Of a stretch of DNA of 16,099 nucleotides, positions 1-16,099 are shown piece by piece (position 1 is the stretch's first letter; each line of letters opens with the position of its first letter). The stretch comes from a virus. Its lineage: Duplodnaviria; Heunggongvirae; Uroviricota; Caudoviricetes. Under the pieces are notes generated by a model. It saw nothing but the letters and a program-made list of their open reading frames with translations, searched no databases and was not told the origin of the DNA. The stretch lies in the IMG/VR virus record IMGVR_UViG_2563366820_000001, positions 1 through 16,099 of that record. One strand, written 5' to 3'. A program made the translations under genes and the position numbers.

Positions 1-1254
1 ATGCTGGAACAAATGGGCATTGCCGCGAAGCAAGCCTCGTATAAATTAGCGCAACTCTCCAGCCGCGAAAAAAATCGCGTGCTGGAAAAAATCGCCGATG
101 AACTGGAAGCACAAAGCGAAATCATCCTCAACGCTAACGCCCAGGATGTTGCTGACGCACGTGCCAATGGCCTTAGCGAAGCGATGCTTGACCGTCTGGC
201 ACTGACGCCCGCACGGCTGAAAGGCATTGCCGACGATGTGCGCCAGGTGTGCAATCTCGCCGATCCGGTGGGGCAGGTGATTGATGGTGGTGTGCTGGAC
301 AGCGGCCTGCGTCTTGAGCGTCGTCGCGTACCGCTGGGGGTGATTGGCGTGATTTATGAAGCGCGCCCGAACGTGACGGTTGATGTTGCTTCCCTGTGCC
401 TGAAAACCGGTAACGCAGTGATCCTGCGTGGTGGCAAAGAAACCTGTCGCACTAACGCTGCAACGGTGGCGGTGATTCAGGACTCCCTGAAATCCTGCGG
501 CTTACCGGCGGGTGCCGTGCAGGCGATTGATAATCCTGACCGTGCGCTGGTAAGTGAAATGCTGCGTATGGATAAATACATCGACATGCTGATCCCGCGT
601 GGTGGCGCTGGCCTGCATAAGCTGTGCCGCGAACAGTCGACAATCCCGGTGATCACAGGCGGTATAGGCGTATGCCATATTTACGTTGATGAAAGTGCAG
701 AGATCGCTGAAGCCCTGAAAGTAATCGTCAACGCAAAAACTCAGCGCCCGAGCACGTGTAATACGGTAGAAACGTTGCTGGTGAATAAAAACATCGCAGA
801 TAGCTTCCTGCCTGTGTTAAGCAAACAGATGGCTGAAAGCGGTGTGACGTTACACGCCGATGCTACCGCACTGACGCAATTGCAGGCAGGTCCCGCGAAG
901 GTGGTTGCTGTTAAAGCTGAAGAGTATGACGATGAGTTTCTGTCCTTAGATTTGAACGTCAAAATCGTCAGCGATCTTGACGATGCCATCGCCCATATTC
1001 GTGAACACGGCACGCAACACTCCGATGCGATCCTGACCCGCGATATGCGCAACGCCCAGCGTTTTGTTAACGAAGTAGATTCCTCCGCTGTTTACGTTAA
1101 CGCTTCTACGCGTTTTACCGATGGCGGCCAGTTTGGTCTGGGTGCGGAAGTGGCGGTAAGCACACAAAAACTCCACGCGCGTGGCCCAATGGGGCTGGAA
1201 GCGCTGACCACTTACAAGTGGATCGGCATTGGTGATTACACCATTCGTGCGTAA
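1..1254 (+). CDS. proA: gamma-glutamyl phosphate reductase (glutamate-5-semialdehyde dehydrogenase), complete
   Basis: 417-aa ORF whose translation I recognise along its full length as E. coli ProA ([30 protein letters not shown] ... [14 protein letters not shown]); TAA stop at 1252..1254; followed by thrW as in the E. coli proBA-thrW locus. Confidence 0.96.
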
Positions 1255-1368
1255 ATAAAACCGGGTGATGCAAAAGTAGCCATTTGATTCACAAGGCCAT
1301 TGACGCATCGCCCGGTTAGTTTTAACCTTGTCCACCGTGATTCACATTCGTGAACATGTCCTTACAGG

Positions 1369-1444
1369 GCCGATATAGCTCAGTTGGTAGAGCAGCGCAT
1401 TCGTAATGCGAAGGTCGTAGGTTCGACTCCTATTATCGGCACCA
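1369..1444 (+). tRNA. thrW: tRNA-Thr (anticodon CGU)
   Basis: 76-nt sequence GCCGATATAGCTCAGTTGGTAGAGCAGCGCATTCGTAATGCGAAGGTCGTAGGTTCGACTCCTATTATCGGCACCA; 7-bp acceptor stem GCCGATA/TATCGGC, anticodon loop TTCGTAA, T-arm GGTTCGACTCC, 3' CCA. Confidence 0.95.
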
Positions 1445-1461
1445 TTCTAATGTCTCCCCAA

Positions 1462-1608
1462 GTCTACTCAAGTATTTAAAAAACTCTTATAATCCGCATG
1501 TTAGCGCCCCTTTTAGTCTTTTGACGTCTACTTAAGTACCCCAAAATCTACAGTCAATTGGGGGTACTTTTGGGGGTATTTGCTGTTCGGTTTAGTGGAG
1601 GTACCCCC
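1462..1608 (+). repeat. attL arm region with direct repeats GTCTACT(C/T)AAGTA (1462..1474, 1526..1538) and inverted GTACCCC/GGGGGTA motifs (1534..1546, 1560..1567, 1571..1579, 1601..1608); candidate integrase arm-type binding sites and int promoter
   Basis: Repeats read directly between the tRNA 3' end and the int start codon. Confidence 0.4.
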
Positions 1609-1610
1609 AA

Positions 1611-2825
1611 GTGAAACTCAATGCCCGTCAAATAGACACTGCCAAGCCAAAAGAGAAGGCTTACAAGCTGGCTGATGGTGGTGGTCTGTATCTCTTGGTA
1701 AAACCTAGTGGAGGAAAATATTGGCGCTTCAAGTATCGTGTAGCTGGTAAAGAGAAGCTGTTAGCACTAGGTGTGTATCCTGAAGTTACCTTGGCTGATG
1801 CTCGTGCAAAACGTGAAGAAGCTAAAAGGGGTATCGCTGGGGGTATCGATCCGATGGAAGCGAAACGAGAGGAAAAGATTGCCCGGGAAACGCAGTTAAA
1901 CAACACCTTCAAAGATATTGCCCTTGAGTGGCACAGCAGCAAATTAAAAAAATGGTCTGCTGGTTATGCTTCAGACATCCTCGAAGCCTTCAACAAAGAT
2001 GTGTTCCCTTACATTGGCAAAAAACCAATCGCCGAAATCAAACCACTTGAACTGCTGAATGTGCTGCGGCGCATCGAGGGGCGCGGTGCTACCGAAAAAG
2101 CCAAAAAAGTGAGGCAGCGATGCGGGGAAGTTTTCCGCTATGCAATTGTCACTGGACGTGCTGAGTATAACCCTGCACCGGATCTCACCAGCGCGATGCA
2201 AGGTCATGAATCTAATCATTATCCTTTCCTCACAGCCAAAGAATTACCTGATTTTTTCAAGGCATTGTCCAGTTACTCAGGAAGTGCATTGGTTGTTATG
2301 GCGGCTCGTCTACTGATTATCACCGGTTTGCGGACTGGCGAACTGCGCGGTGCATTATGGGATGAAATCGATCTCAACAAGGCTATCTGGGAGATACCAG
2401 CTTCACGGATGAAAATGCGTCGCCCTCATGTGGTGCCTTTGTCTGAGCAGGCTCTTTCGCTTATTGGGCAGATTAAAGAACTAACTGGCAATTATCCGCT
2501 TATGTTTCCCGGCCGTAATGATCCAAGGAAAACAATGAGCGAGGCTAGCATAAACCAAGTATTTAAACGCATCGGCTATAACGGAAAGGTTACTGGTCAT
2601 GGCTTCCGGCACACTATGAGCACCATTTTGCATGAGCAGGGCTATAACACCGCGTGGATAGAGACACAGCTTGCGCACGTCGATAAAAACTCAATTCGTG
2701 GCACATACAACCATGCGCAATATCTGGATGGGCGGCGGGAAATGCTTCAGTGGTACGCTGATTATATGGATTCGCTCGAGCATGGCGGAAATGTGGTGCA
2801 TGGTGAGTTCGGAAAATGCGGGTGA
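1611..2825 (+). CDS. int: P4-family tyrosine site-specific integrase
   Basis: 404-aa ORF with GTG start preceded by GGAGG (1597..1601); N-terminus MKLNARQIDTAKPKEKAYKLADGGGLYLLVKP typical of P4-like integrases; C-terminal catalytic region with conserved R (ITGLRTGELR), HGFRHT and Y (SIRGTYNHAQY); location directly downstream of a tRNA. Confidence 0.9.
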   Translation: MKLNARQIDTAKPKEKAYKLADGGGLYLLVKPSGGKYWRFKYRVAGKEKLLALGVYPEVTLADARAKREEAKRGIAGGIDPMEAKREEKIARETQLNNTFKDIALEWHSSKLKKWSAGYASDILEAFNKDVFPYIGKKPIAEIKPLELLNVLRRIEGRGATEKAKKVRQRCGEVFRYAIVTGRAEYNPAPDLTSAMQGHESNHYPFLTAKELPDFFKALSSYSGSALVVMAARLLIITGLRTGELRGALWDEIDLNKAIWEIPASRMKMRRPHVVPLSEQALSLIGQIKELTGNYPLMFPGRNDPRKTMSEASINQVFKRIGYNGKVTGHGFRHTMSTILHEQGYNTAWIETQLAHVDKNSIRGTYNHAQYLDGRREMLQWYADYMDSLEHGGNVVHGEFGKCG

Positions 2826-2896
2826 CTGGTTGAGTATACAGTAGTAGACTTTGAGCGATTAAGAAAAGGCTGTGTCTAGGGTCGCTCCCGAAAATC

Positions 2897-2951
2897 CGCA
2901 CACCTCTGCGGACTGGCACAGCCACTACGGTAGAGGGCGCAGAGGTGTGCG
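2897..2951 (+). promoter_or_regulatory. Perfect 14-bp inverted repeat CGCACACCTCTGCG (2897..2910) / CGCAGAGGTGTGCG (2938..2951), 27-nt spacer; second arm contains the AGAGGTG Shine-Dalgarno of the downstream ORF
   Basis: Reverse-complement identity verified base by base; the ATG at 2953 follows arm 2 directly. Confidence 0.5.
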
Positions 2952-2952
2952 T

Positions 2953-3723
2953 ATGGTTGATATTCATGCCGAATTAAATGAATATAAAAAAGAGTTTATT
3001 TATTTACGTGATTTTCTTGATGATGTATTTAAAGTTGTTGATGCTAATATTTCAGAAGTCATTACCTGGATACTCAAGAGAATAAATACAGTAAATCCAG
3101 GTATTACCCTGTACACAGTAAATTCATTAAATGAGGTGGAACTTTATTCTTCGGATCCGTTTGAGTGGAGATCTGATTTTAACTTTCTTTATGCAAAACT
3201 GGATACGGTTAGGGAGCGTGGTTGTTTACCTTGTGAGAGGGATGAGAGTGGTTTTCTGGTATCTGGTTATTGGGAAGATGCCGAATTTGAGGCAATGGGA
3301 TTCAGAAGAAATGAAATTTTCGAAATTTTCCCAGAAATCCTTGACGGGTTAATGAATCTGGAATGTGCTGACTCTTCTGAAAATAACGAGGCGCAAGGAA
3401 GCAATATTGAACATAAAGAGTTGCGTACAGATGATGATTTTTTATCCCGAATTGCAATGCTGGAAAAAGAAAATGAATCGTTAAGGGAGCGGGTAAATCA
3501 GTTAGAAAAGGAGCGCCCGATTTTGCTAAGGGCGTATCGTGATGATGACCCATTGTATCTGGCTATCGATATTAGAAACAGAGAGTGGGCCAATTACGAC
3601 CCAGAGAATGATCGCGCAACCAGGGGAAACCAGGGCGCGATTACTACTGAACTTGAAAAACGAGGTTTTACCTCCCGACAGGCCGCATCTATTGAGCTTG
3701 TCGCCTGTCCTATCAAACGATGA
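2953..3723 (+). CDS. Hypothetical protein (256 aa from ATG 2953; ORF track allows GTG at 2872), AT-rich N-terminal half, coiled-coil-like segment IAMLEKENESLRERVNQLEKER
   Basis: Long ORF with SD AGAGGTG 6 nt upstream of ATG 2953; codon composition markedly more AT-rich than the flanking int and alpA; no family recognised. Confidence 0.55.
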   Translation: MVDIHAELNEYKKEFIYLRDFLDDVFKVVDANISEVITWILKRINTVNPGITLYTVNSLNEVELYSSDPFEWRSDFNFLYAKLDTVRERGCLPCERDESGFLVSGYWEDAEFEAMGFRRNEIFEIFPEILDGLMNLECADSSENNEAQGSNIEHKELRTDDDFLSRIAMLEKENESLRERVNQLEKERPILLRAYRDDDPLYLAIDIRNREWANYDPENDRATRGNQGAITTELEKRGFTSRQAASIELVACPIKR

Positions 3724-3762
3724 AGCCTTACCCTAGTGATATCTCATGTTTTGTTCGCGTCT

Positions 3763-3841
3763 CACCCTAAGGGTAATCAGACCTCACCCTTAGGGTATTT
3801 TTGTATGCTTTCCCATCAATTTTACTATTACCCTTAGGGTA
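3763..3841 (+). promoter_or_regulatory. Three copies of a palindromic motif ACCCT(A/T)AGGGTA (3763..3776, 3785..3797, 3830..3841) upstream of alpA; candidate operator array
   Basis: Motifs read directly; ACCCTAAGGGT and ACCCTTAGGGT are reverse complements of each other. Confidence 0.5.
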
Positions 3842-3943
3842 AAAATATTCCCGATTACCATTAGGCATGAGGGTATGAAAATATTCGTTATTTCTGTGCC
3901 ATGATTACCTCGTCAAATTGAGTAGACGTTATGAGGTAAATAT

Positions 3944-4141
3944 ATGTCAAATACGCTTATTCGTTTAACGGAAGTTCAGCGTAGAACTGGATATAGCAAG
4001 GCATGGATTTATCGCCTTATGGGGCAAGGTAAATTTCCTGCATCAGTTAAAATTGGCTCGCGAGCGATTGCTTTCGTTGAGAGTGAAATTGACGAGTGGA
4101 TTAATCAGCGTATTGCGGAATCACGCGGAACAGCTACCTGA
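3944..4141 (+). CDS. alpA: AlpA-family phage transcriptional regulator / excisionase-like HTH protein
   Basis: 65-aa product MSNTLIRLTEVQRRTGYSKAWIYRLMGQGKFPASVKIGSRAIAFVESEIDEWINQR matches the AlpA pattern (L+EV...G.S+..IY.L...G.FP..VK.G.R...F.E.EI.EWI). Confidence 0.8.
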   Translation: MSNTLIRLTEVQRRTGYSKAWIYRLMGQGKFPASVKIGSRAIAFVESEIDEWINQRIAESRGTAT

Positions 4142-4219
4142 TTAAATGGCTACGGGGCCAGAAGTCCCAGCTATCCACCAGCAAATAAAAAGTAACTTAA
4201 TTCGATAGCAGGAGTTTTT

Positions 4220-5020
4220 ATGAAACTGCGAAAAACGCCCGTACAGGGGCAGGGATTCGTTCGGCCTGAAAACCAGAGCCAACAAAATTTCGGCGAAATT
4301 ATCCCGGTTATTTCCGGCGTTATTGGCGGGCGTGAAACCAATATTGTTAGCGCCAGAGCGTTGCATAAGGCGCTGGGTGTGAAGCGTGATTTCACAACCT
4401 GGATTAAAGGACGCATTGATGAGTACGGATTTAAAAAGGGCGTGGATTTTGAATTCGTAGAAAATTTGACCTCCCCCAATCCGGTGAGCGCAAAATCTCG
4501 CCAACGTGTAGAGCACGACTACCTGAGCACTATCAACATGGCGAAAGAACTGGCGATGGTCGAACGCACCGAACAGGGCCGCGCCGTTCGTCAGTACTTC
4601 ATCAAATGCGAGGAAGAGCTACACAAGGTTGCGCCTGTACGTTCCGCAGCGTTACGCCGGGAACTGAAAGCCCGTATCACAGTTGCCAGCTACTTTAAGC
4701 CAATGTGTGCCGCGCTGGAGGCGTACCGGGCTGAACTGGGTAAAAACACGCTCCAGCACCATTACACCACGGAAGCCAATATGCTGGCGCGTATCGTGCT
4801 GGGTGGCATGACTGCAAAACAGTGGGCGCAGGCGAACGGCATTACAGGCGAACCACGCGACCACATGAGCACGTTGCAGCTTGAGCACCTTTCTTACCTT
4901 GAGCAGAGCAATATCACGCTGATTGAGTTAGGCCAGGACTACCACCAGCGGAAGGCTGAATTAATTCGTCTTTCGCAGCGTTGGTTAGCCCGTCGCATGG
5001 AGGAAAACAGCCATGTGTAA
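4220..5020 (+). CDS. Phage antirepressor-like protein (AntA/AntB-type N-terminal domain)
   Basis: 266-aa ORF with AGGAG SD; segment ARALHKALGVKRDFTTWIKGRIDEYGFKKGVDFEF resembles the AntA/AntB antirepressor domain signature; called by eye, not by search. Confidence 0.55.
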   Translation: MKLRKTPVQGQGFVRPENQSQQNFGEIIPVISGVIGGRETNIVSARALHKALGVKRDFTTWIKGRIDEYGFKKGVDFEFVENLTSPNPVSAKSRQRVEHDYLSTINMAKELAMVERTEQGRAVRQYFIKCEEELHKVAPVRSAALRRELKARITVASYFKPMCAALEAYRAELGKNTLQHHYTTEANMLARIVLGGMTAKQWAQANGITGEPRDHMSTLQLEHLSYLEQSNITLIELGQDYHQRKAELIRLSQRWLARRMEENSHV

Positions 5021-5275
5021 CGCTCTGACCGTTACAAAAAGAGAAAGCGCCCCGTTGCCGGAGCGCCTTTGTGAACGAATTACCTGTAGCACCATATTGC
5101 TTACTGTCTACGAGGCAGATTATAGCGTTGTGGTCGCACAGAGTGAAGGCGCTGATCACCGTTACTACAGCACACCAGAAATGCGGAATATTTTGCTGCA
5201 AAATGTCGTTGGCCACGCTGTCCGGAAAGCAAAAAATTTTGCTGGTGGCGCGACTGATGCGATTTTTTCTGGGCG

Positions 5276-5449
5276 TCAGCCTTTTGGCTCGATACCGCGC
5301 TGTTGTAATTCTTTGCGGAGTATTCGTTTAATCCAAGTAGCTAATGAGGTGTCGCCGTCTGCCTTGGCTGCCTCCTCAAGTTGCGCTCTAAATTCTTCTG
5401 GTAGTCGCATTTGGTATGGTGGTGATCGTTTCTCTAATGGTGTTGACAT
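5276..5449 (-). CDS. Arc/MetJ-type ribbon-helix-helix DNA-binding protein (57 aa), not in the ORF track
   Basis: Minus-strand translation verified codon by codon: MSTPLEKRSPPYQMRLPEEFRAQLEEAAKADGDTSLATWIKRILRKELQQRGIEPKG; MRLPEEF...SLATWIKRIL is the Arc-like beta-strand/helix signature; SD-like AGGGG upstream; divergent from the + strand operon. Confidence 0.6.
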   Translation of the reverse strand: MSTPLEKRSPPYQMRLPEEFRAQLEEAAKADGDTSLATWIKRILRKELQQRGIEPKG

Positions 5450-5489
5450 GGTAATTACCCCTAATTACTATAGTTACATGGTAATTACC
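5446..5489 (+). promoter_or_regulatory. Two copies of ACATGGTAATTACC (5446..5459, 5476..5489) containing the perfect palindrome GGTAATTACC, 30 bp apart, in the divergent intergenic region; candidate operators for the Arc-like repressor
   Basis: Exact 14-nt repeats read from sequence; the first overlaps the Arc-like start codon. Confidence 0.5.
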
Positions 5490-5585
5490 ATTGTACTTAC
5501 CATTACGCAAAAAACAACGCCCCGCAGTGCTGGAACACATGCAGGGCGTCTAACCACCAACGATAGCAGAAGTATCGAGGTAGCT

Positions 5586-5789
5586 ATGAGAAATCATACC
5601 ACACACCCGCAAGGGCGGGACTCGCACAACCTGAATAAATACATCTGGCGTTTTATCGCCCTGAGCACGGCACAACCGCGCGTAATTCACATCGAGGCCA
5701 CCAGCGAACAGGAAGCCCGCCAGCAATCCCCGGCTGGCTGCGTGATGGTATTCGCTGCCCGTATTCGCCAGGAGGTGCACCATGCATAA
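5586..5789 (+). CDS. Hypothetical small protein (67 aa), first gene of the replication-module operon
   Basis: ATG at 5586 preceded by GAGG; in frame with the C-terminal part of the spurious 5013..5789 track ORF; stop overlaps the next start (ATGCATAA). Confidence 0.45.
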   Translation: MRNHTTHPQGRDSHNLNKYIWRFIALSTAQPRVIHIEATSEQEARQQSPAGCVMVFAARIRQEVHHA

Positions 5790-6147
5790 CCTGTCAATTT
5801 CTGACCTTAACAGCATTCAGTTTGACGAGAAATTTACCGGGCAGCTACTGGTCAATGTGGAGAACGGGCGCATAGTGCGTAATTACCACCTGCCGGATGG
5901 TGCAATTGCCGGAAGCGTTGAAGCATTGCTGGAAATGGCGGAACGTGCGCGACTGATTAAGCCGTCAACGTGCCATCACGATGATGATCTGCATTTTACC
6001 GGACGCATGGTGAGTCACTACGAAAACGGCGTTGAAGTATCCCGCGAACGGCTGCGTGATGATTGCTGTTTCGGCACACTGCCGGAATTTATCGAATTGC
6101 TGACCAGTTGCGGTTACCAGGTCATTCAGGGGGTGCATCATGGGTAA
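5782..6147 (+). CDS. Hypothetical protein (121 aa) with two internal copies of an FTG...NG... module
   Basis: Translationally coupled on both sides; internal repeat FTGQLLVNVENGRIV / FTGRMVSHYENGVEV. Confidence 0.55.
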   Translation: MHNLSISDLNSIQFDEKFTGQLLVNVENGRIVRNYHLPDGAIAGSVEALLEMAERARLIKPSTCHHDDDLHFTGRMVSHYENGVEVSRERLRDDCCFGTLPEFIELLTSCGYQVIQGVHHG

Positions 6148-6340
6148 TCAGCCAGCAACAATGACAATTACCCTGAATGTGCCAGATGATTTCACCGGAC
6201 GCGTACTGGTTTACCTGGATAAAGGGAACGTGAAATCACAATGCCGACTGCGAAATAATGAAATTGTAAGTACGGTAGAAGGCTTTTCTGAACTCTGTAT
6301 TCGTGCAGGAATAAAACCGGAACTGCTGACAGGAAAATAA
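6140..6340 (+). CDS. Hypothetical protein (66 aa), paralogous to the module in the upstream ORF
   Basis: FTGRVLVYLDKGNVKSQCRL...TVEGFSELCIRAGIKP aligns with FTGQLLVNVENGRIVRNYHL...SVEALLEMAERARLIKP of the upstream product; start overlaps the upstream stop. Confidence 0.5.
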   Translation: MGNQPATMTITLNVPDDFTGRVLVYLDKGNVKSQCRLRNNEIVSTVEGFSELCIRAGIKPELLTGK

Positions 6341-6344
6341 AACC

Positions 6345-6659
6345 ATGAAAAAGAAAAATTCTGGCTTTACTGCCAGCGGTCTCTCTCGGCCTGAAATTCG
6401 CCCCGGCGATATTTTCCGGGATAAATACGGCAGTCAGATAACGGTAAAAACGGTGAGTGCTTATCGTGTGACCTATATCCGCGAAGGGTATGCGCATCCC
6501 TGCGTGTCGTCACATATGCGCTTTGAAAGGGAATTCATCCTTGTAAGTAAAGCGCCACCAGCAGAATTAAGCGACATCGACAAAATCATGAGCGTCACGG
6601 GCGCGGAACGCATCAGGACAGTACGTGAAATTATTCGTGAGCGGGGAGGTAAGAAGTGA
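6345..6659 (+). CDS. Hypothetical protein (104 aa)
   Basis: ORF with ATG 4 nt after the previous stop; stop overlaps the primase GTG start (GTGA). Confidence 0.5.
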   Translation: MKKKNSGFTASGLSRPEIRPGDIFRDKYGSQITVKTVSAYRVTYIREGYAHPCVSSHMRFEREFILVSKAPPAELSDIDKIMSVTGAERIRTVREIIRERGGKK

Positions 6660-13464: not shown

Positions 13465-14046
13465 ATGAGTTTTTTTAGTCTTTATGGGAAAGAACTATTT
13501 TCTTTTTTTATAGCGATATTAACATGGATACTGAATAACAGATTTAAAAGCAAGGCAAAGTTATCCTATGGTTATCAGCATGGATTTACTTTTCTTCTCA
13601 ATGAACCCTTACGGAATGCCAATGGTGAGATAATATCTAATTCACAGTTGGTGTATACACGATCTATTATTCTTGTTAATGAAGGGCGAGAAAGTGCTAC
13701 TAATATATCATTGGTTTTTAACTATAAGCCAATGCATATTAATTTTTGGCCTGTCCACCATTTTGAAGAAAATATTGAGCAGGATGGTCGCTATATTATC
13801 AAGTTTGAAAGTCTTGCACCTGGTGAGTCTATTCAATGTGAAATGTTATCAATAAATAGAGAAGTTCCAAGTATTCTATCGATAAGATCTAAAGAGTGTG
13901 TGGCTGAGCCAGTGAATATCGTAATGCAAAAATCGATTAGTAATATTGCCCTACGTTGCTATCAATTATTAATACTTCTTGGAACTGGTACATTAACATA
14001 TTTAATTATCGTTATTCTGCAATGGTTAGTCACTAAAACGGGATAA
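13465..14046 (+). CDS. Hypothetical membrane protein (193 aa) with one N-terminal and one C-terminal predicted TM helix; AT-rich cargo gene
   Basis: SD GAAGGAAG 6 nt upstream of ATG 13465 (track start is GTG 13462); hydrophobic segments FSFFIAILTWILNN and LLILLGTGTLTYLIIVILQWLV; AT-rich codon usage unlike the backbone. Confidence 0.6.
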   Translation: MSFFSLYGKELFSFFIAILTWILNNRFKSKAKLSYGYQHGFTFLLNEPLRNANGEIISNSQLVYTRSIILVNEGRESATNISLVFNYKPMHINFWPVHHFEENIEQDGRYIIKFESLAPGESIQCEMLSINREVPSILSIRSKECVAEPVNIVMQKSISNIALRCYQLLILLGTGTLTYLIIVILQWLVTKTG

Positions 14047-14074
14047 TCCATTGTATTGAACTTATTAATTGGAT

Positions 14075-14275
14075 ATGAGTGCTGATAGGAAAGCTATGAC
14101 CATCACCGAAGCCGATTTGCTGGAGATGATCCGCAGCATTGCCGGAATCAAACAACCAGCAAGCAAAATTAACAGGTGTTCAGCGCCTGTTTCCGTTGTG
14201 CTGCAACAGGAACGCCACCAGCAGGATGATGTGAGGCCGTATCAGTGGAAGAAACCGGACAGGCCGCGACGGTGA
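14075..14275 (+). CDS. Short ORF (66 aa from ATG 14075; track uses TTG 14069), possibly a gene remnant
   Basis: GC-richer island between two AT-rich genes; no SD; translation is protein-like (MTITEADLLEMIRSIAGIKQPA) but unassignable. Confidence 0.25.
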   Translation: MSADRKAMTITEADLLEMIRSIAGIKQPASKINRCSAPVSVVLQQERHQQDDVRPYQWKKPDRPRR

Positions 14276-14606
14276 GCGGAGCGTTACGGTAAGGCTACAG
14301 CCAAGCCAAACATTAAGCCTAAGGGTAAGGTTTTTTGTTGCAGGTGGCATTAATTTGGATGTTGATTTAAGGAGCATTTTTACTGAGACGGCCTGTTCGG
14401 GGTAACTTTTTTGTATGCCATTCACTTGTATGAGAGCTGTACTACGAAATAGGTTGGCATGGTGGGGAGAGCATTCTGTACTGTTATTGAATAACACTAT
14501 CGTTTTTTATTCCTTTTGGTTATTAAGTGGTGTGCGTTAAGACATGGTTTTCTTTATGTTTTTCATGTATATATTGCTTTTTAACTCAATAAGGAAACAC
14601 TGATAA

Positions 14607-15500
14607 ATGGCAAGACCAAAAAAATTAACTTATGGGGCGGTGAATATAACAATGCATCCCCACTCGCCAGAAAAATATGTAGAATTGTTCAGAATGGCAA
14701 GAAAAAACGCGAGAAATGTTAATTTGAGGGGGGACTCTTTCGCGACTTTATCACACTTTTATCCTTACAGGAAAGATCAGGTAGTTAGTGAACCTTTTGA
14801 AGGGGAAATTCTAAAGTATACAGATATTGATGTTGATGGAGATTGGTTCGATATTGTAAAGAAAGACATTGCCTCAGATGAGCAAAAGGAAAGGATAAGT
14901 ATACCTGAGAATTTAAAACCAAATGTGGCTCGATTCTCTTTTGTTTTTCTACCTGCCAGCCATCTTTTAGTTTATGAGATGCAGGACAAAGGTCGGCATC
15001 TTACATCAAAACAAATAGAAAATTTTCTGAATGGAATATTTTCTCATGAGAGAATTATAGAGAAGTTTGGGAAGATTAATGTTACAATATTAACCGAGCC
15101 AGATAACGTAGAACGTATGCTTTCTTTAAAAGGCATTACGTGTATAAATATGGTTACTCGACGTCCTAACCCAGATGATCTCGCTTCTGCAGAAAGTATT
15201 ATGCAAAAGCGTTTCAAACGTATTGGCGTTATTGAAGAAGATAAAACATATAAATCTGAGCGTGGTCAGGAAATTAAACCTGATAGTGAGTTAAAGCAGG
15301 ATGCTCTTATTGCTTCGAGAAATGGCGAAGTTAGCATACGTAGGATTAATGAGGCGGGATTAGTTGAGGTTCATGCCTCAAGCGATTTACCACTTCAAAG
15401 GGTTGAATCATATGATTCTGACGTAACATCAGTTACTGAGCTATTGTTATTAAGAGCAAAATCTTTAGCAGATGAGTTTAAGAGGCTTCTGAGAAAGTAA
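14607..15500 (+). CDS. Hypothetical soluble protein (297 aa), first gene of a translationally coupled two-gene cargo cassette; candidate defense component
   Basis: ATG with AAGGAAA SD; AT-rich; no Walker A, HTH or other motif I can recognise; acidic cluster YTDIDVDGDWFDIVKKD; stop overlaps the next start (TAATG). Confidence 0.75.
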   Translation: MARPKKLTYGAVNITMHPHSPEKYVELFRMARKNARNVNLRGDSFATLSHFYPYRKDQVVSEPFEGEILKYTDIDVDGDWFDIVKKDIASDEQKERISIPENLKPNVARFSFVFLPASHLLVYEMQDKGRHLTSKQIENFLNGIFSHERIIEKFGKINVTILTEPDNVERMLSLKGITCINMVTRRPNPDDLASAESIMQKRFKRIGVIEEDKTYKSERGQEIKPDSELKQDALIASRNGEVSIRRINEAGLVEVHASSDLPLQRVESYDSDVTSVTELLLLRAKSLADEFKRLLRK

Positions 15501-16099
15501 TGAGTAAAGTAAAAGAATCAACCAGTGCAATGGCTAGATACTGGAAGATCTATGGTGGCGCTGGGGCTGTATTTAAAAGTCGCTATTTTTGGTGTGCTTT
15601 TTTTATGACAGTGATTCTTTATCCATCTTGGTCTCATCAGGGGTGGTGGAATGATATTCTGTCGTTAATGCCGAACCTTTTGGGTTTTTCACTGGGTGGT
15701 TTTGCTATGTGGATTGCTATTGGAGATGAGGCTTTCAAAAAAATAATAACTGGAGATGAAGAAAGTGAAAATGGAGAGGTAGAATATTCTCCTTATATGT
15801 CTGTGAATGCAACCTTTGTTCATTTTATATTATTGCAGTTGTTAACTATAATAATGGCCTTGGTCACCAAGGCCTATAGTAGCATTCTCATAAATAACGC
15901 TTTTATGTATTATTATTTAGGTGTTGCTTACAGGTATGTACTGTTAACATTCAGCTTCTTTGCATACTTTATATTTATTTACTCAGTATTCTCTGCGTTA
16001 GCTGCCGTTTTTGCTATATTTCGTGTTTCTAGTTGGTATAATACTTTTATGACCTTACGAAACAAACAAGATAACGCTAAAAATAATAAGGAGGAATAA
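15500..16099 (+). CDS. Hypothetical integral membrane protein (199 aa, about 4 predicted TM helices); candidate membrane effector
   Basis: Hydrophobic segments YFWCAFFMTVILYPSW, LLGFSLGGFAMWIAIG, FVHFILLQLLTIIMALV, YVLLTFSFFAYFIFIYSVFSALAAVFAIF; ATG overlaps the upstream stop; TAA at 16097..16099 is the last codon of the window. Confidence 0.75.
   Translation: MSKVKESTSAMARYWKIYGGAGAVFKSRYFWCAFFMTVILYPSWSHQGWWNDILSLMPNLLGFSLGGFAMWIAIGDEAFKKIITGDEESENGEVEYSPYMSVNATFVHFILLQLLTIIMALVTKAYSSILINNAFMYYYLGVAYRYVLLTFSFFAYFIFIYSVFSALAAVFAIFRVSSWYNTFMTLRNKQDNAKNNKEE

Follow-up and report, generated by a model that had tools for sequence, protein, structure and literature searches.

RexAB of phage lambda was the first abortive-infection system to be discovered and is the oldest design of this kind. 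To our knowledge, neither its trigger nor the manner in which RexA opens RexB has been established. Two-gene units composed of a soluble protein and a protein with four transmembrane helices are also found in actinophages, namely gp44/gp43 of Gordonia phage CarolAnn and gp30/gp31 of the mycobacteriophages Sbash and Butters, and these have been shown to defend against heterotypic phages. Two other RexAB-like pairs have been validated: RexABpp (PP_5643/PP_5644) of a Pseudomonas putida prophage and Sucellos (SclA/SclB, VCA0367/VCA0368) of the Vibrio cholerae integron. In both pairs the membrane protein brings about growth arrest or lysis: over-production of RexApp results in RexBpp-dependent growth arrest and membrane permeabilisation, and Sucellos requires both genes and leads to lysis of infected cells. 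Here, we describe a similar gene pair, composed of open reading frames ORF1 and ORF2, at the end of a DNA stretch of 16,099 nt (positions 1 to 16,099 of IMG/VR virus record IMGVR_UViG_2563366820_000001; this whole stretch is further called the window). The pair is carried by a satellite of the phage-inducible chromosomal island (PICI) type in Escherichia coli. ORF1 is a DUF4747 protein with a predicted RexA-like fold and ORF2 a predicted membrane protein, and we consider it probable, with moderate confidence, that together they form a RexAB-type two-component phage-exclusion or abortive-infection module that serves as swappable cargo of the satellite.

ORF1 matches the DUF4747 profile (PF15931) over its full length (profile positions 1-257 of 257) with an E-value of 9.5e-98 and 327.2 bits against a gathering cut-off of 27, and it also matches phrog_10040. 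The original prediction for this locus, made from the DNA letters alone, had found no assignable motif in the protein, a statement that the DUF4747 match overturns. The DUF4747 family comprises 1,265 cluster representatives (50% identity) at E ≤ 0.001 and 708 at E ≤ 1e-30; the best 150 listed of these 1,265 are mostly stand-alone, full-length proteins of ~285-310 aa. In 128 diverse members, residues Y24, W80, H119, N188 and G240 are invariant, and the RPNPDD motif (residues 186-191) is largely conserved, with P187 and D190 nearly as constant as N188. The acidic cluster DIDVDGDWFD (residues 73-82), which had been put forward as a possible metal-coordinating site, was rejected as such: apart from the invariant W80 and Asp75, the majority residue at its position, its acidic positions vary, making a metal site unlikely. 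Profiles of PADLOC, Pfam and NCBIfam revealed no nuclease, NTPase or other enzymatic signature in ORF1. NCBIfam matched neither ORF1 nor ORF2, and PADLOC yielded only a 12-bit chance match to GajB.

The relation to RexA emerges at the level of predicted structure. An AlphaFold2 model of ORF1 with 34 homologues as input (predicted local distance difference test (pLDDT) 91.8, predicted template modelling score (pTM) 0.87) was compared with the PDB using Foldseek, with lambda RexA (8TWQ) as best match (E 3.6e-7, probability 1.0) and E. coli RdgC (2OWL and 2OWY) next. RdgC is, together with Iml3 and Chl4, also reported as a structural relative of RexA in the RexA crystallography paper (PMC11077077). 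The full-length Foldseek template modelling scores of the ORF1 model are low (~0.3), which fits a hinge between the two domains of RexA, the match being per domain and not rigid-body. We predict a two-domain RexA/RdgC-like fold for ORF1. A DUF4747 domain has been ascribed to lambda RexA and CarolAnn gp44 in several papers, and the soluble Rex-like proteins of actinophages were tied to DUF4747 by their authors through weak HHpred matches. This label was not reproduced by Pfam hmmscan, in which lambda RexA matched PF15969 only and gp44 matched nothing, even at E ≤ 10. In a control, lambda RexA was found by both RexA models (Pfam PF15969 and PADLOC RexA), whereas ORF1 matched no RexA model in PADLOC and only DUF4747 in Pfam. 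A hidden Markov model (HMM) search of the PDB sequences with the ORF1 family profile did not return RexA either. The relationship between ORF1 and RexA, and the DUF4747-RexA link in general, is visible here solely in the predicted fold and not in the sequence.

ORF2 is a predicted helical inner-membrane protein with four hydrophobic helices, in agreement with the approximately four transmembrane helices originally counted. In its hydropathy profile, the helices at residues ~25-45 and ~50-75 are moderately and those at ~100-125 and ~145-175 strongly hydrophobic. The second and third helices are separated by a net-acidic loop (residues 75-97), and both the N-terminus and the charged C-terminal tail are positive. 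The AlphaFold2 model is an all-helical bundle (pLDDT 84.9) that has no significant fold match among the predicted viral structures of BFVD. No match was found in Pfam, NCBIfam or PADLOC, including the RexB family models (Pfam PF15968 and PADLOC RexB), and the protein belongs to phrog_20580. Its homologues (n = 177, ~45-55% identity) occur across Gammaproteobacteria and carry the invariant motifs YWxxYGG, LGFSLGG and F-HFI--Q, the last two in the extended forms MPNLLGFSLGG(F/Y)A and FVHFILLQ, in addition to the nearly invariant FRVSSWY.

The two genes are tightly linked. As originally predicted, they overlap by one base: the stop codon of ORF1 (TAA, 15498-15500) and the ATG of ORF2 (15500) have one A in common, read as AAGTAATGAGT. 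Distant relatives keep a one- to four-base overlap, or abutment, of both genes. In two diverged copies (synonymous divergence (dS) ~0.45-0.60), the ratio of nonsynonymous to synonymous substitution rates (dN/dS) amounts to 0.066-0.072 for ORF1 and 0.076-0.087 for ORF2, so both are under strong purifying selection. Because dN/dS is low and distant relatives preserve the overlap or abutment, we regard ORF1 and ORF2 as real genes. The pairing of their families is that of an obligate, mobile unit. A scan with the ORF2 motifs, covering one genome per species, resulted in 27 loci from Gamma- and Betaproteobacteria, Desulfobulbaceae, Holophagales, Chloroflexi and Bacteroidota, and in 26 of them a DUF4747 gene is located directly upstream on the same strand. 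The sole exception is an Odoribacter locus in which a 141-aa ORF2-like protein follows an unrelated 257-aa gene. Conversely, DUF4747 was found at 13 loci in IMG/VR, and the ORF2 family was present directly downstream in all 11 that have enough downstream DNA. In distant pairs, the membrane partner typically has 40-53% identity versus 28-42% for the DUF4747 partner, and a faster-diverging soluble protein next to a conserved membrane protein fits a sensor with a conserved effector. The Odoribacter protein retains the LGFSLGGYA motif, and proteins other than DUF4747 may be partners of the membrane module in Bacteroidales.

Carriers of the pair are satellites, prophages and islands, and not sequenced free phages, as tblastn of ORF1 against 50,697 phage genomes gave no match. 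The pair is rare accessory DNA: among 5,426 complete E. coli genomes, the window's allele is present in 13 and any allele in 19, all copies being chromosomal, and three of 72,556 plasmids carry the pair. The pair recurs in hotspots known for antiviral genes, among them the P4 psu-int defence hotspot, a P2-like prophage and prophage ends (Table 1). In the Shewanella P2-like prophage, the DUF4747 gene shares 11 nt at its start with a gene for a 106-aa helix-turn-helix protein (HTH_3, Xre-type). This gene, possibly that of a dedicated regulator, is missing from the E. coli copies.

The layout of the pair is of the RexAB type because the predicted fold of ORF1 is that of lambda RexA and a small membrane protein is encoded directly downstream. 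By analogy with lambda RexAB, Sbash gp30/31, CarolAnn gp44/43, RexABpp and Sucellos, we propose ORF1 as the cytoplasmic sensor and probable DNA binder and ORF2 as the membrane effector. ORF1 would be a cytoplasmic protein with a RexA/RdgC fold, probably a dimer that clamps DNA non-specifically, and could sense an early infection event, the signal being a phage protein, or else a DNA-protein or replication intermediate of the phage. It would then contact the cytoplasmic face of ORF2, likeliest at the acidic central loop or the C-terminal tail. ORF2, presumably made in a fixed ratio via translational coupling, would open or assemble into a channel or pore, and the resulting collapse of membrane potential and ATP would stop growth and leave the cycle of the infecting phage unfinished. 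The originally proposed layout of a soluble and a membrane protein, typical of abortive-infection systems, holds, whereas the defence function itself is expected by analogy.

Several observations weigh against this interpretation. At the sequence level, searches with BLASTP, HMMER and hhalign (34- and 128-sequence profiles) did not relate ORF1 to lambda RexA, to the Rex-like proteins of E. coli P4 satellites (pFR86, pFR81) or to CarolAnn gp44. BLASTP and hhalign of ORF2 against RexB, with a single sequence or a three-sequence alignment, returned nothing, and no sequence or fold relationship with CarolAnn gp43 was detected; ORF2 resembles the known Rex membrane effectors in architecture only. 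PADLOC v2, which does detect lambda RexA and RexB, recognizes neither ORF1 nor ORF2. A literature search found no experimental test of the DUF4747 + ORF2 sequence family. In addition, a Rex-like appearance is no guarantee of a phenotype: in the available part of Rousset et al. (2022), pFR86 and pFR81 are listed only in a table of "additional tested systems", without a result in the text. Finally, two reports (PMC11077077; 10.1101/2021.04.19.439022) describe a further role of lambda RexA, in the lysis-lysogeny switch, for which RexB is not needed.

This last activity is the starting point for a life-cycle or helper-interference role, in which the RexA-like protein would bind DNA or repressors and bias a switch of satellite or helper phage, be it lysis-lysogeny or induction, with ORF2 as an accessory. 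The same reports state that lambda RexA binds DNA and biases a bistable switch without RexB, the module is carried by satellites and prophages, and the overlapping HTH_3 gene in Shewanella would suit such a role. However, the pair is found on unrelated elements with differing regulatory circuits (PICI, P4, P2-like and other prophages, a tRNA-Asn island and an Acinetobacter plasmid) and most sister satellites carry other cargo instead. Since it is mobile among unrelated elements and missing from most sister satellites, the pair stands outside the core switch of any one element, and we consider a switch role improbable. Unlikely as well is a reversal of roles as described for Butters gp30/gp31 (PMC7542560; summarized in PMC12894663), in which case the toxic antiviral activity would reside in the soluble DUF4747 protein and the membrane protein would only restrain it until infection. 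Tight translational coupling and obligate pairing suit neutraliser and toxin no less than sensor and effector. Yet it is the membrane partner that is better conserved, with invariant glycine-rich and polar intramembrane motifs that suggest an active, channel-like role and not a passive anchor, and the soluble partner bears no enzymatic signature. The membrane protein is, moreover, the effector in four of the five described Rex-like systems by the count of the P. putida study.

A small, translationally coupled two-gene cassette on mobile elements could also serve addiction or stabilisation in the manner of toxin-antitoxin modules, or encode a superinfection-exclusion membrane protein that blocks DNA entry, neither involving abortive infection. 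The copy on the 11.7-kb plasmid of Acinetobacter lwoffii indeed adjoins a RelE/ParE toxin gene, and membrane proteins at prophage ends often serve superinfection exclusion. Neither protein matches a toxin-antitoxin or Sie family, though; a block of entry needs no 297-aa partner resembling a DNA clamp, and carriage by plasmids is very rare. We regard these functions as highly improbable for this pair, and retain a RexAB-type exclusion or abortive-infection module as the preferred explanation.

The carrier of the pair is a PICI-type phage satellite inserted at tRNA-Thr. The window starts within proA, followed by this tRNA gene, and the element has a tRNA-adjacent tyrosine integrase, AlpA, a primase/replicase, an incomplete set of virion genes and flanking attachment (att) repeats. 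The same att core, TCCTATTATC, was reported for the mobilisable E. coli PICI EcCIMP1 at tRNA-Thr (PMC11773190), with which the satellite also has gene content and integration site in common. Strain N921 harbours a related satellite at the same site with the same distal cargo, in which a second att core lies 687 bp past the stop codon of the pair; the pair is therefore the final cargo before attR. Sister PICIs at tRNA-Thr have a common backbone up to a small ORF, ~180-bp homologues of which precede differing cargo (Table 1), and the distal slot is a genuine variable hotspot. Both this position in variable distal cargo and the AT-richness of the pair had been predicted: GC content is 0.36 over 14501-16000 versus ~0.50-0.55 across most of the satellite backbone. 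Most sister satellites are without the pair, and it is also present on a related PICI at another site, abgR/smrA. In the UTAK-5 satellite, the slot holds a gene annotated as GapS1 family; GAPS1 appears in a preprint about defence cargo of Gamma-Mobile-Trio elements. The Orc1/Cdc6-like ATPase of JNU and the hypothetical gene and zinc-ribbon protein of TUM9757 are unannotated candidates for defence genes.

Table 1. Features of the gene pair, its carrier satellite and related loci. Positions refer to the window or, where another genome is named, to the locus from that genome.
Feature	Genome or locus	Coordinates	Strand	Details
ORF1	Window	14607..15500	+	297 aa
ORF2	Window	15500..16099	+	199 aa; last base of the window is the end of the ORF2 stop codon
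Upstream leader	Window	14487..14606	+	Travels with both genes; contains invariant blocks TGGTGTGCGTTAAGACA and TTTCATGTATATAT
Shine-Dalgarno sequence TAAGGAA	Window	14590-14596	+	11 nt ahead of the ORF1 start
12-mer GGGGAGAGCATT	Window	14465-14476		Upstream of the pair
attL core TCCTATTATC	Window	1428..1437	+	Within the 3' end of tRNA-Thr (1369-1444); partner attR past the window end
Satellite genes	Window			Tyrosine integrase, AlpA, AntA-like antirepressor, DUF4222, D5_N/DUF5906 primase, ProQ/FinO, PerC, DUF2213 protein
AT-rich gene next to the integrase	Window	2872..3723	+	283 aa; GC ~37%; between integrase and alpA
PerC-family regulator	Window	10502..10789	+
Second AT-rich cargo gene	Window	13462..14046	+	194 aa; GC ~33%; just upstream of the pair
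Small backbone ORF	Window	14069..14275	+	68 aa; proximal edge of the variable cargo slot
Homologue of small backbone ORF	L002	16697-16876
Homologue of small backbone ORF	JNU (L004)	19282-19461
Homologue of small backbone ORF	TUM9757 (L062)	18352-18531
Homologue of small backbone ORF	UTAK-5 (L061)	23183-23365
Slot cargo: gene annotated GapS1 family	UTAK-5 (L061)	24214-25812		Equivalent of window 14276-16099
Slot cargo: Orc1/Cdc6-like ATPase	JNU (L004)	19702-20901		Equivalent of window 14276-16099
Slot cargo: hypothetical gene and 576-aa zinc-ribbon gene	TUM9757 (L062)	18853-21272		Equivalent of window 14276-16099
ORF2-like protein behind unrelated gene	Odoribacter (L032)	340-1822
HTH_3 gene	Shewanella (L044)	6691-7011
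Pair in P4 psu-int defence hotspot	E. coli NCTC10973, Enterobacter hormaechei			~90% DNA identity to the window's pair
Pair between ogr and gpD of P2-like prophage	Shewanella
Pair directly after prophage integrase	Vibrio parahaemolyticus
Pair in island adjoining PAAR toxin cluster	Citrobacter rodentium
Pair near Mrr-like nuclease gene	Metapseudomonas
Pair in minimal tRNA-Asn island	E. coli PSUO2			Only evident cargo besides integrase and helix-turn-helix genes
Pair on 11.7-kb MOBQ plasmid	Acinetobacter lwoffii			Beside RelE/ParE toxin gene

A leader of ~105-120 bp upstream of ORF1 is alike in PICI-borne and P4-borne copies (E. coli NCTC10973, Enterobacter), whereas the DNA farther upstream differs; the megablast alignment with the P4 copy begins at window position 14504. 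The leader presumably holds the module's own promoter or operator, a candidate for a non-canonical one: a scan of the leader for the sigma-70 consensus found sites no more frequently than expected by chance and no canonical sigma-70 promoter, and promoter and terminator scans performed no better than on shuffled sequence. The 12-mer GGGGAGAGCATT upstream of the leader is also present at the P4 hotspot boundary in P4-borne copies (L060, L041), at another distance from the genes, and may be a relic of transfer from the P4 hotspot, or chance.

Some other genes of the satellite were observed alongside. The product of the second AT-rich gene, just upstream of the pair, has a hydrophobic C-terminal helix and no match in Pfam, NCBIfam, PHROGs or PADLOC. 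This gene is present in the N921 and UTAK-5 satellites and absent in those of JNU, TUM9757 and FDAARGOS, and may be another accessory or defence gene. The only signal in the AT-rich gene between integrase and alpA is a weak bZIP-like coiled coil. In sister PICIs its place is taken by other hypothetical genes (~250-265 aa), a hint of a second variable slot adjoining the integrase. The satellite also encodes a PerC-family regulator; the PerC-like protein of EcCIMP1 silenced a reporter of LEE1 (locus of enterocyte effacement) in Citrobacter rodentium (PMC11773190).

This work indicates that the widespread DUF4747 family, with its predicted RexA fold, comes firmly linked with a conserved membrane partner of its own. 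The DUF4747-RexA link, which earlier came from weak HHpred matches, is thereby placed on a (predicted) structural footing. The finding also accounts for cargo that recurs as "hypothetical" in P4, P2 and PICI hotspots and goes unrecognised by PADLOC v2. It is another Rex-like family and no new principle, and it leaves the picture of the field unchanged. The E. coli copy is a self-contained cassette of 1.6 kb with its own leader and is easily tested. A bolder possibility, rather doubtful at present, is that the DUF4747 + ORF2 pair represents a separate, experimentally untouched branch of Rex-like immunity, with a new effector family unrelated to RexB and an RdgC-like DNA clamp that would read phage replication or recombination intermediates as trigger. 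If so, it would offer a tractable E. coli model for a 70-year-old question, namely which targets a RexA-type sensor recognizes and how it opens its membrane partner.

Among the described systems, lambda RexAB resembles the pair in organisation. The gene order is identical, with the soluble protein first and a small four-helix membrane protein immediately after, sizes are similar (297 + 199 aa versus 279 + 144 aa for lambda RexA/RexB), and both pairs are borne by mobile elements and expected to be expressed from the resident element. In contrast, neither window protein matches the RexA/RexB sequences or their Pfam and PADLOC profiles, the pair is hotspot cargo of a satellite and does not adjoin a cI repressor as lambda RexAB does, and ORF2 exceeds RexB in length and carries invariant motifs of its own, so that homology to RexB is unproven. 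The actinophage pairs differ in that their soluble proteins are ~370 aa long and remotely DUF4747-like, whereas ORF1 is a true full-length DUF4747 member, and in their hosts, which are Actinobacteria instead of Proteobacteria. Neither Pfam nor PADLOC profiles match CarolAnn gp44 or gp43, and hhalign of the ORF1 and ORF2 family alignments against them gave probabilities ≤ 0.1%. Because these tests of sequence membership failed, the pair was not filed under the lambda RexAB or CarolAnn families.

RexABpp and Sucellos, as the window pair, are without Pfam RexA/RexB match and were recognized through structure or HHpred. For RexABpp, the authors obtained only hypothetical proteins of pseudomonads with BLAST of PP_5643 and do not mention DUF4747, and HHpred gave them no probable homologue of the membrane protein. 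Homologues of Sucellos are reportedly frequent in prophages of Salmonella, where the DUF4747 family of the window is common too (PMC11181664), which would fit an identity of both systems. However, the searches brought up no DUF4747 cluster as large as pandemic V. cholerae would lead one to expect, which argues, on a comparison by description and cluster size alone, that Sucellos is a different sequence family. Kiwa, to which the original prediction saw a superficial resemblance, likewise consists of two genes for a four-transmembrane protein and a soluble protein of ~300 aa. It differs by its opposite gene order (kwaA first) and the RexA-like predicted fold of ORF1, and was rejected as no KwaA or KwaB (DUF4868) profile of PADLOC or Pfam matched at E ≤ 1.

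The closest relatives by sequence show that the pair is not an undescribed system, as was first supposed. Rousset et al. (2022) list "DUF4747 + hypothetical (WP_023196287 + WP_089520072)" as P4 hotspot content in Table S1; the DUF4747 protein of the E. coli NCTC10973 copy is this same WP_023196287. This cargo is the same two-gene family with the ~105-120-bp leader in common, carried by a P4-like satellite at ssrA instead of a PICI at tRNA-Thr, and in the available part of the tables it is not among the cloned systems. The same authors cloned two other Rex-like P4 cargos, "RexAB-like" (pFR86) and "RexA + 4TM" (pFR81). Inspection shows their sequences to be unlike those of the window pair, and their alignment with lambda RexA/RexB yielded no profile match. 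A 2026 EMBO J paper (PMC13373217) reports 17 "DUF4747/CarolAnn prophage system" operons under CapK-CapS control, located downstream of CapK-CapS in Acinetobacter and counted among "known or predicted" immune operons. An inspection of ORF size and strand around the Acinetobacter copy L022, made to look for capK-capS, showed no large ORF upstream on the same strand. With a full-length DUF4747 protein and a conserved ORF2-family partner, the window pair belongs to this DUF4747 operon family already noticed in the literature (PMC13373217; Rousset et al. 2022). In kind, it is probably an ordinary Rex-like exclusion cassette of a satellite hotspot; at the level of detail, it represents a family that is distinct in sequence from lambda RexAB and CarolAnn gp44/gp43.

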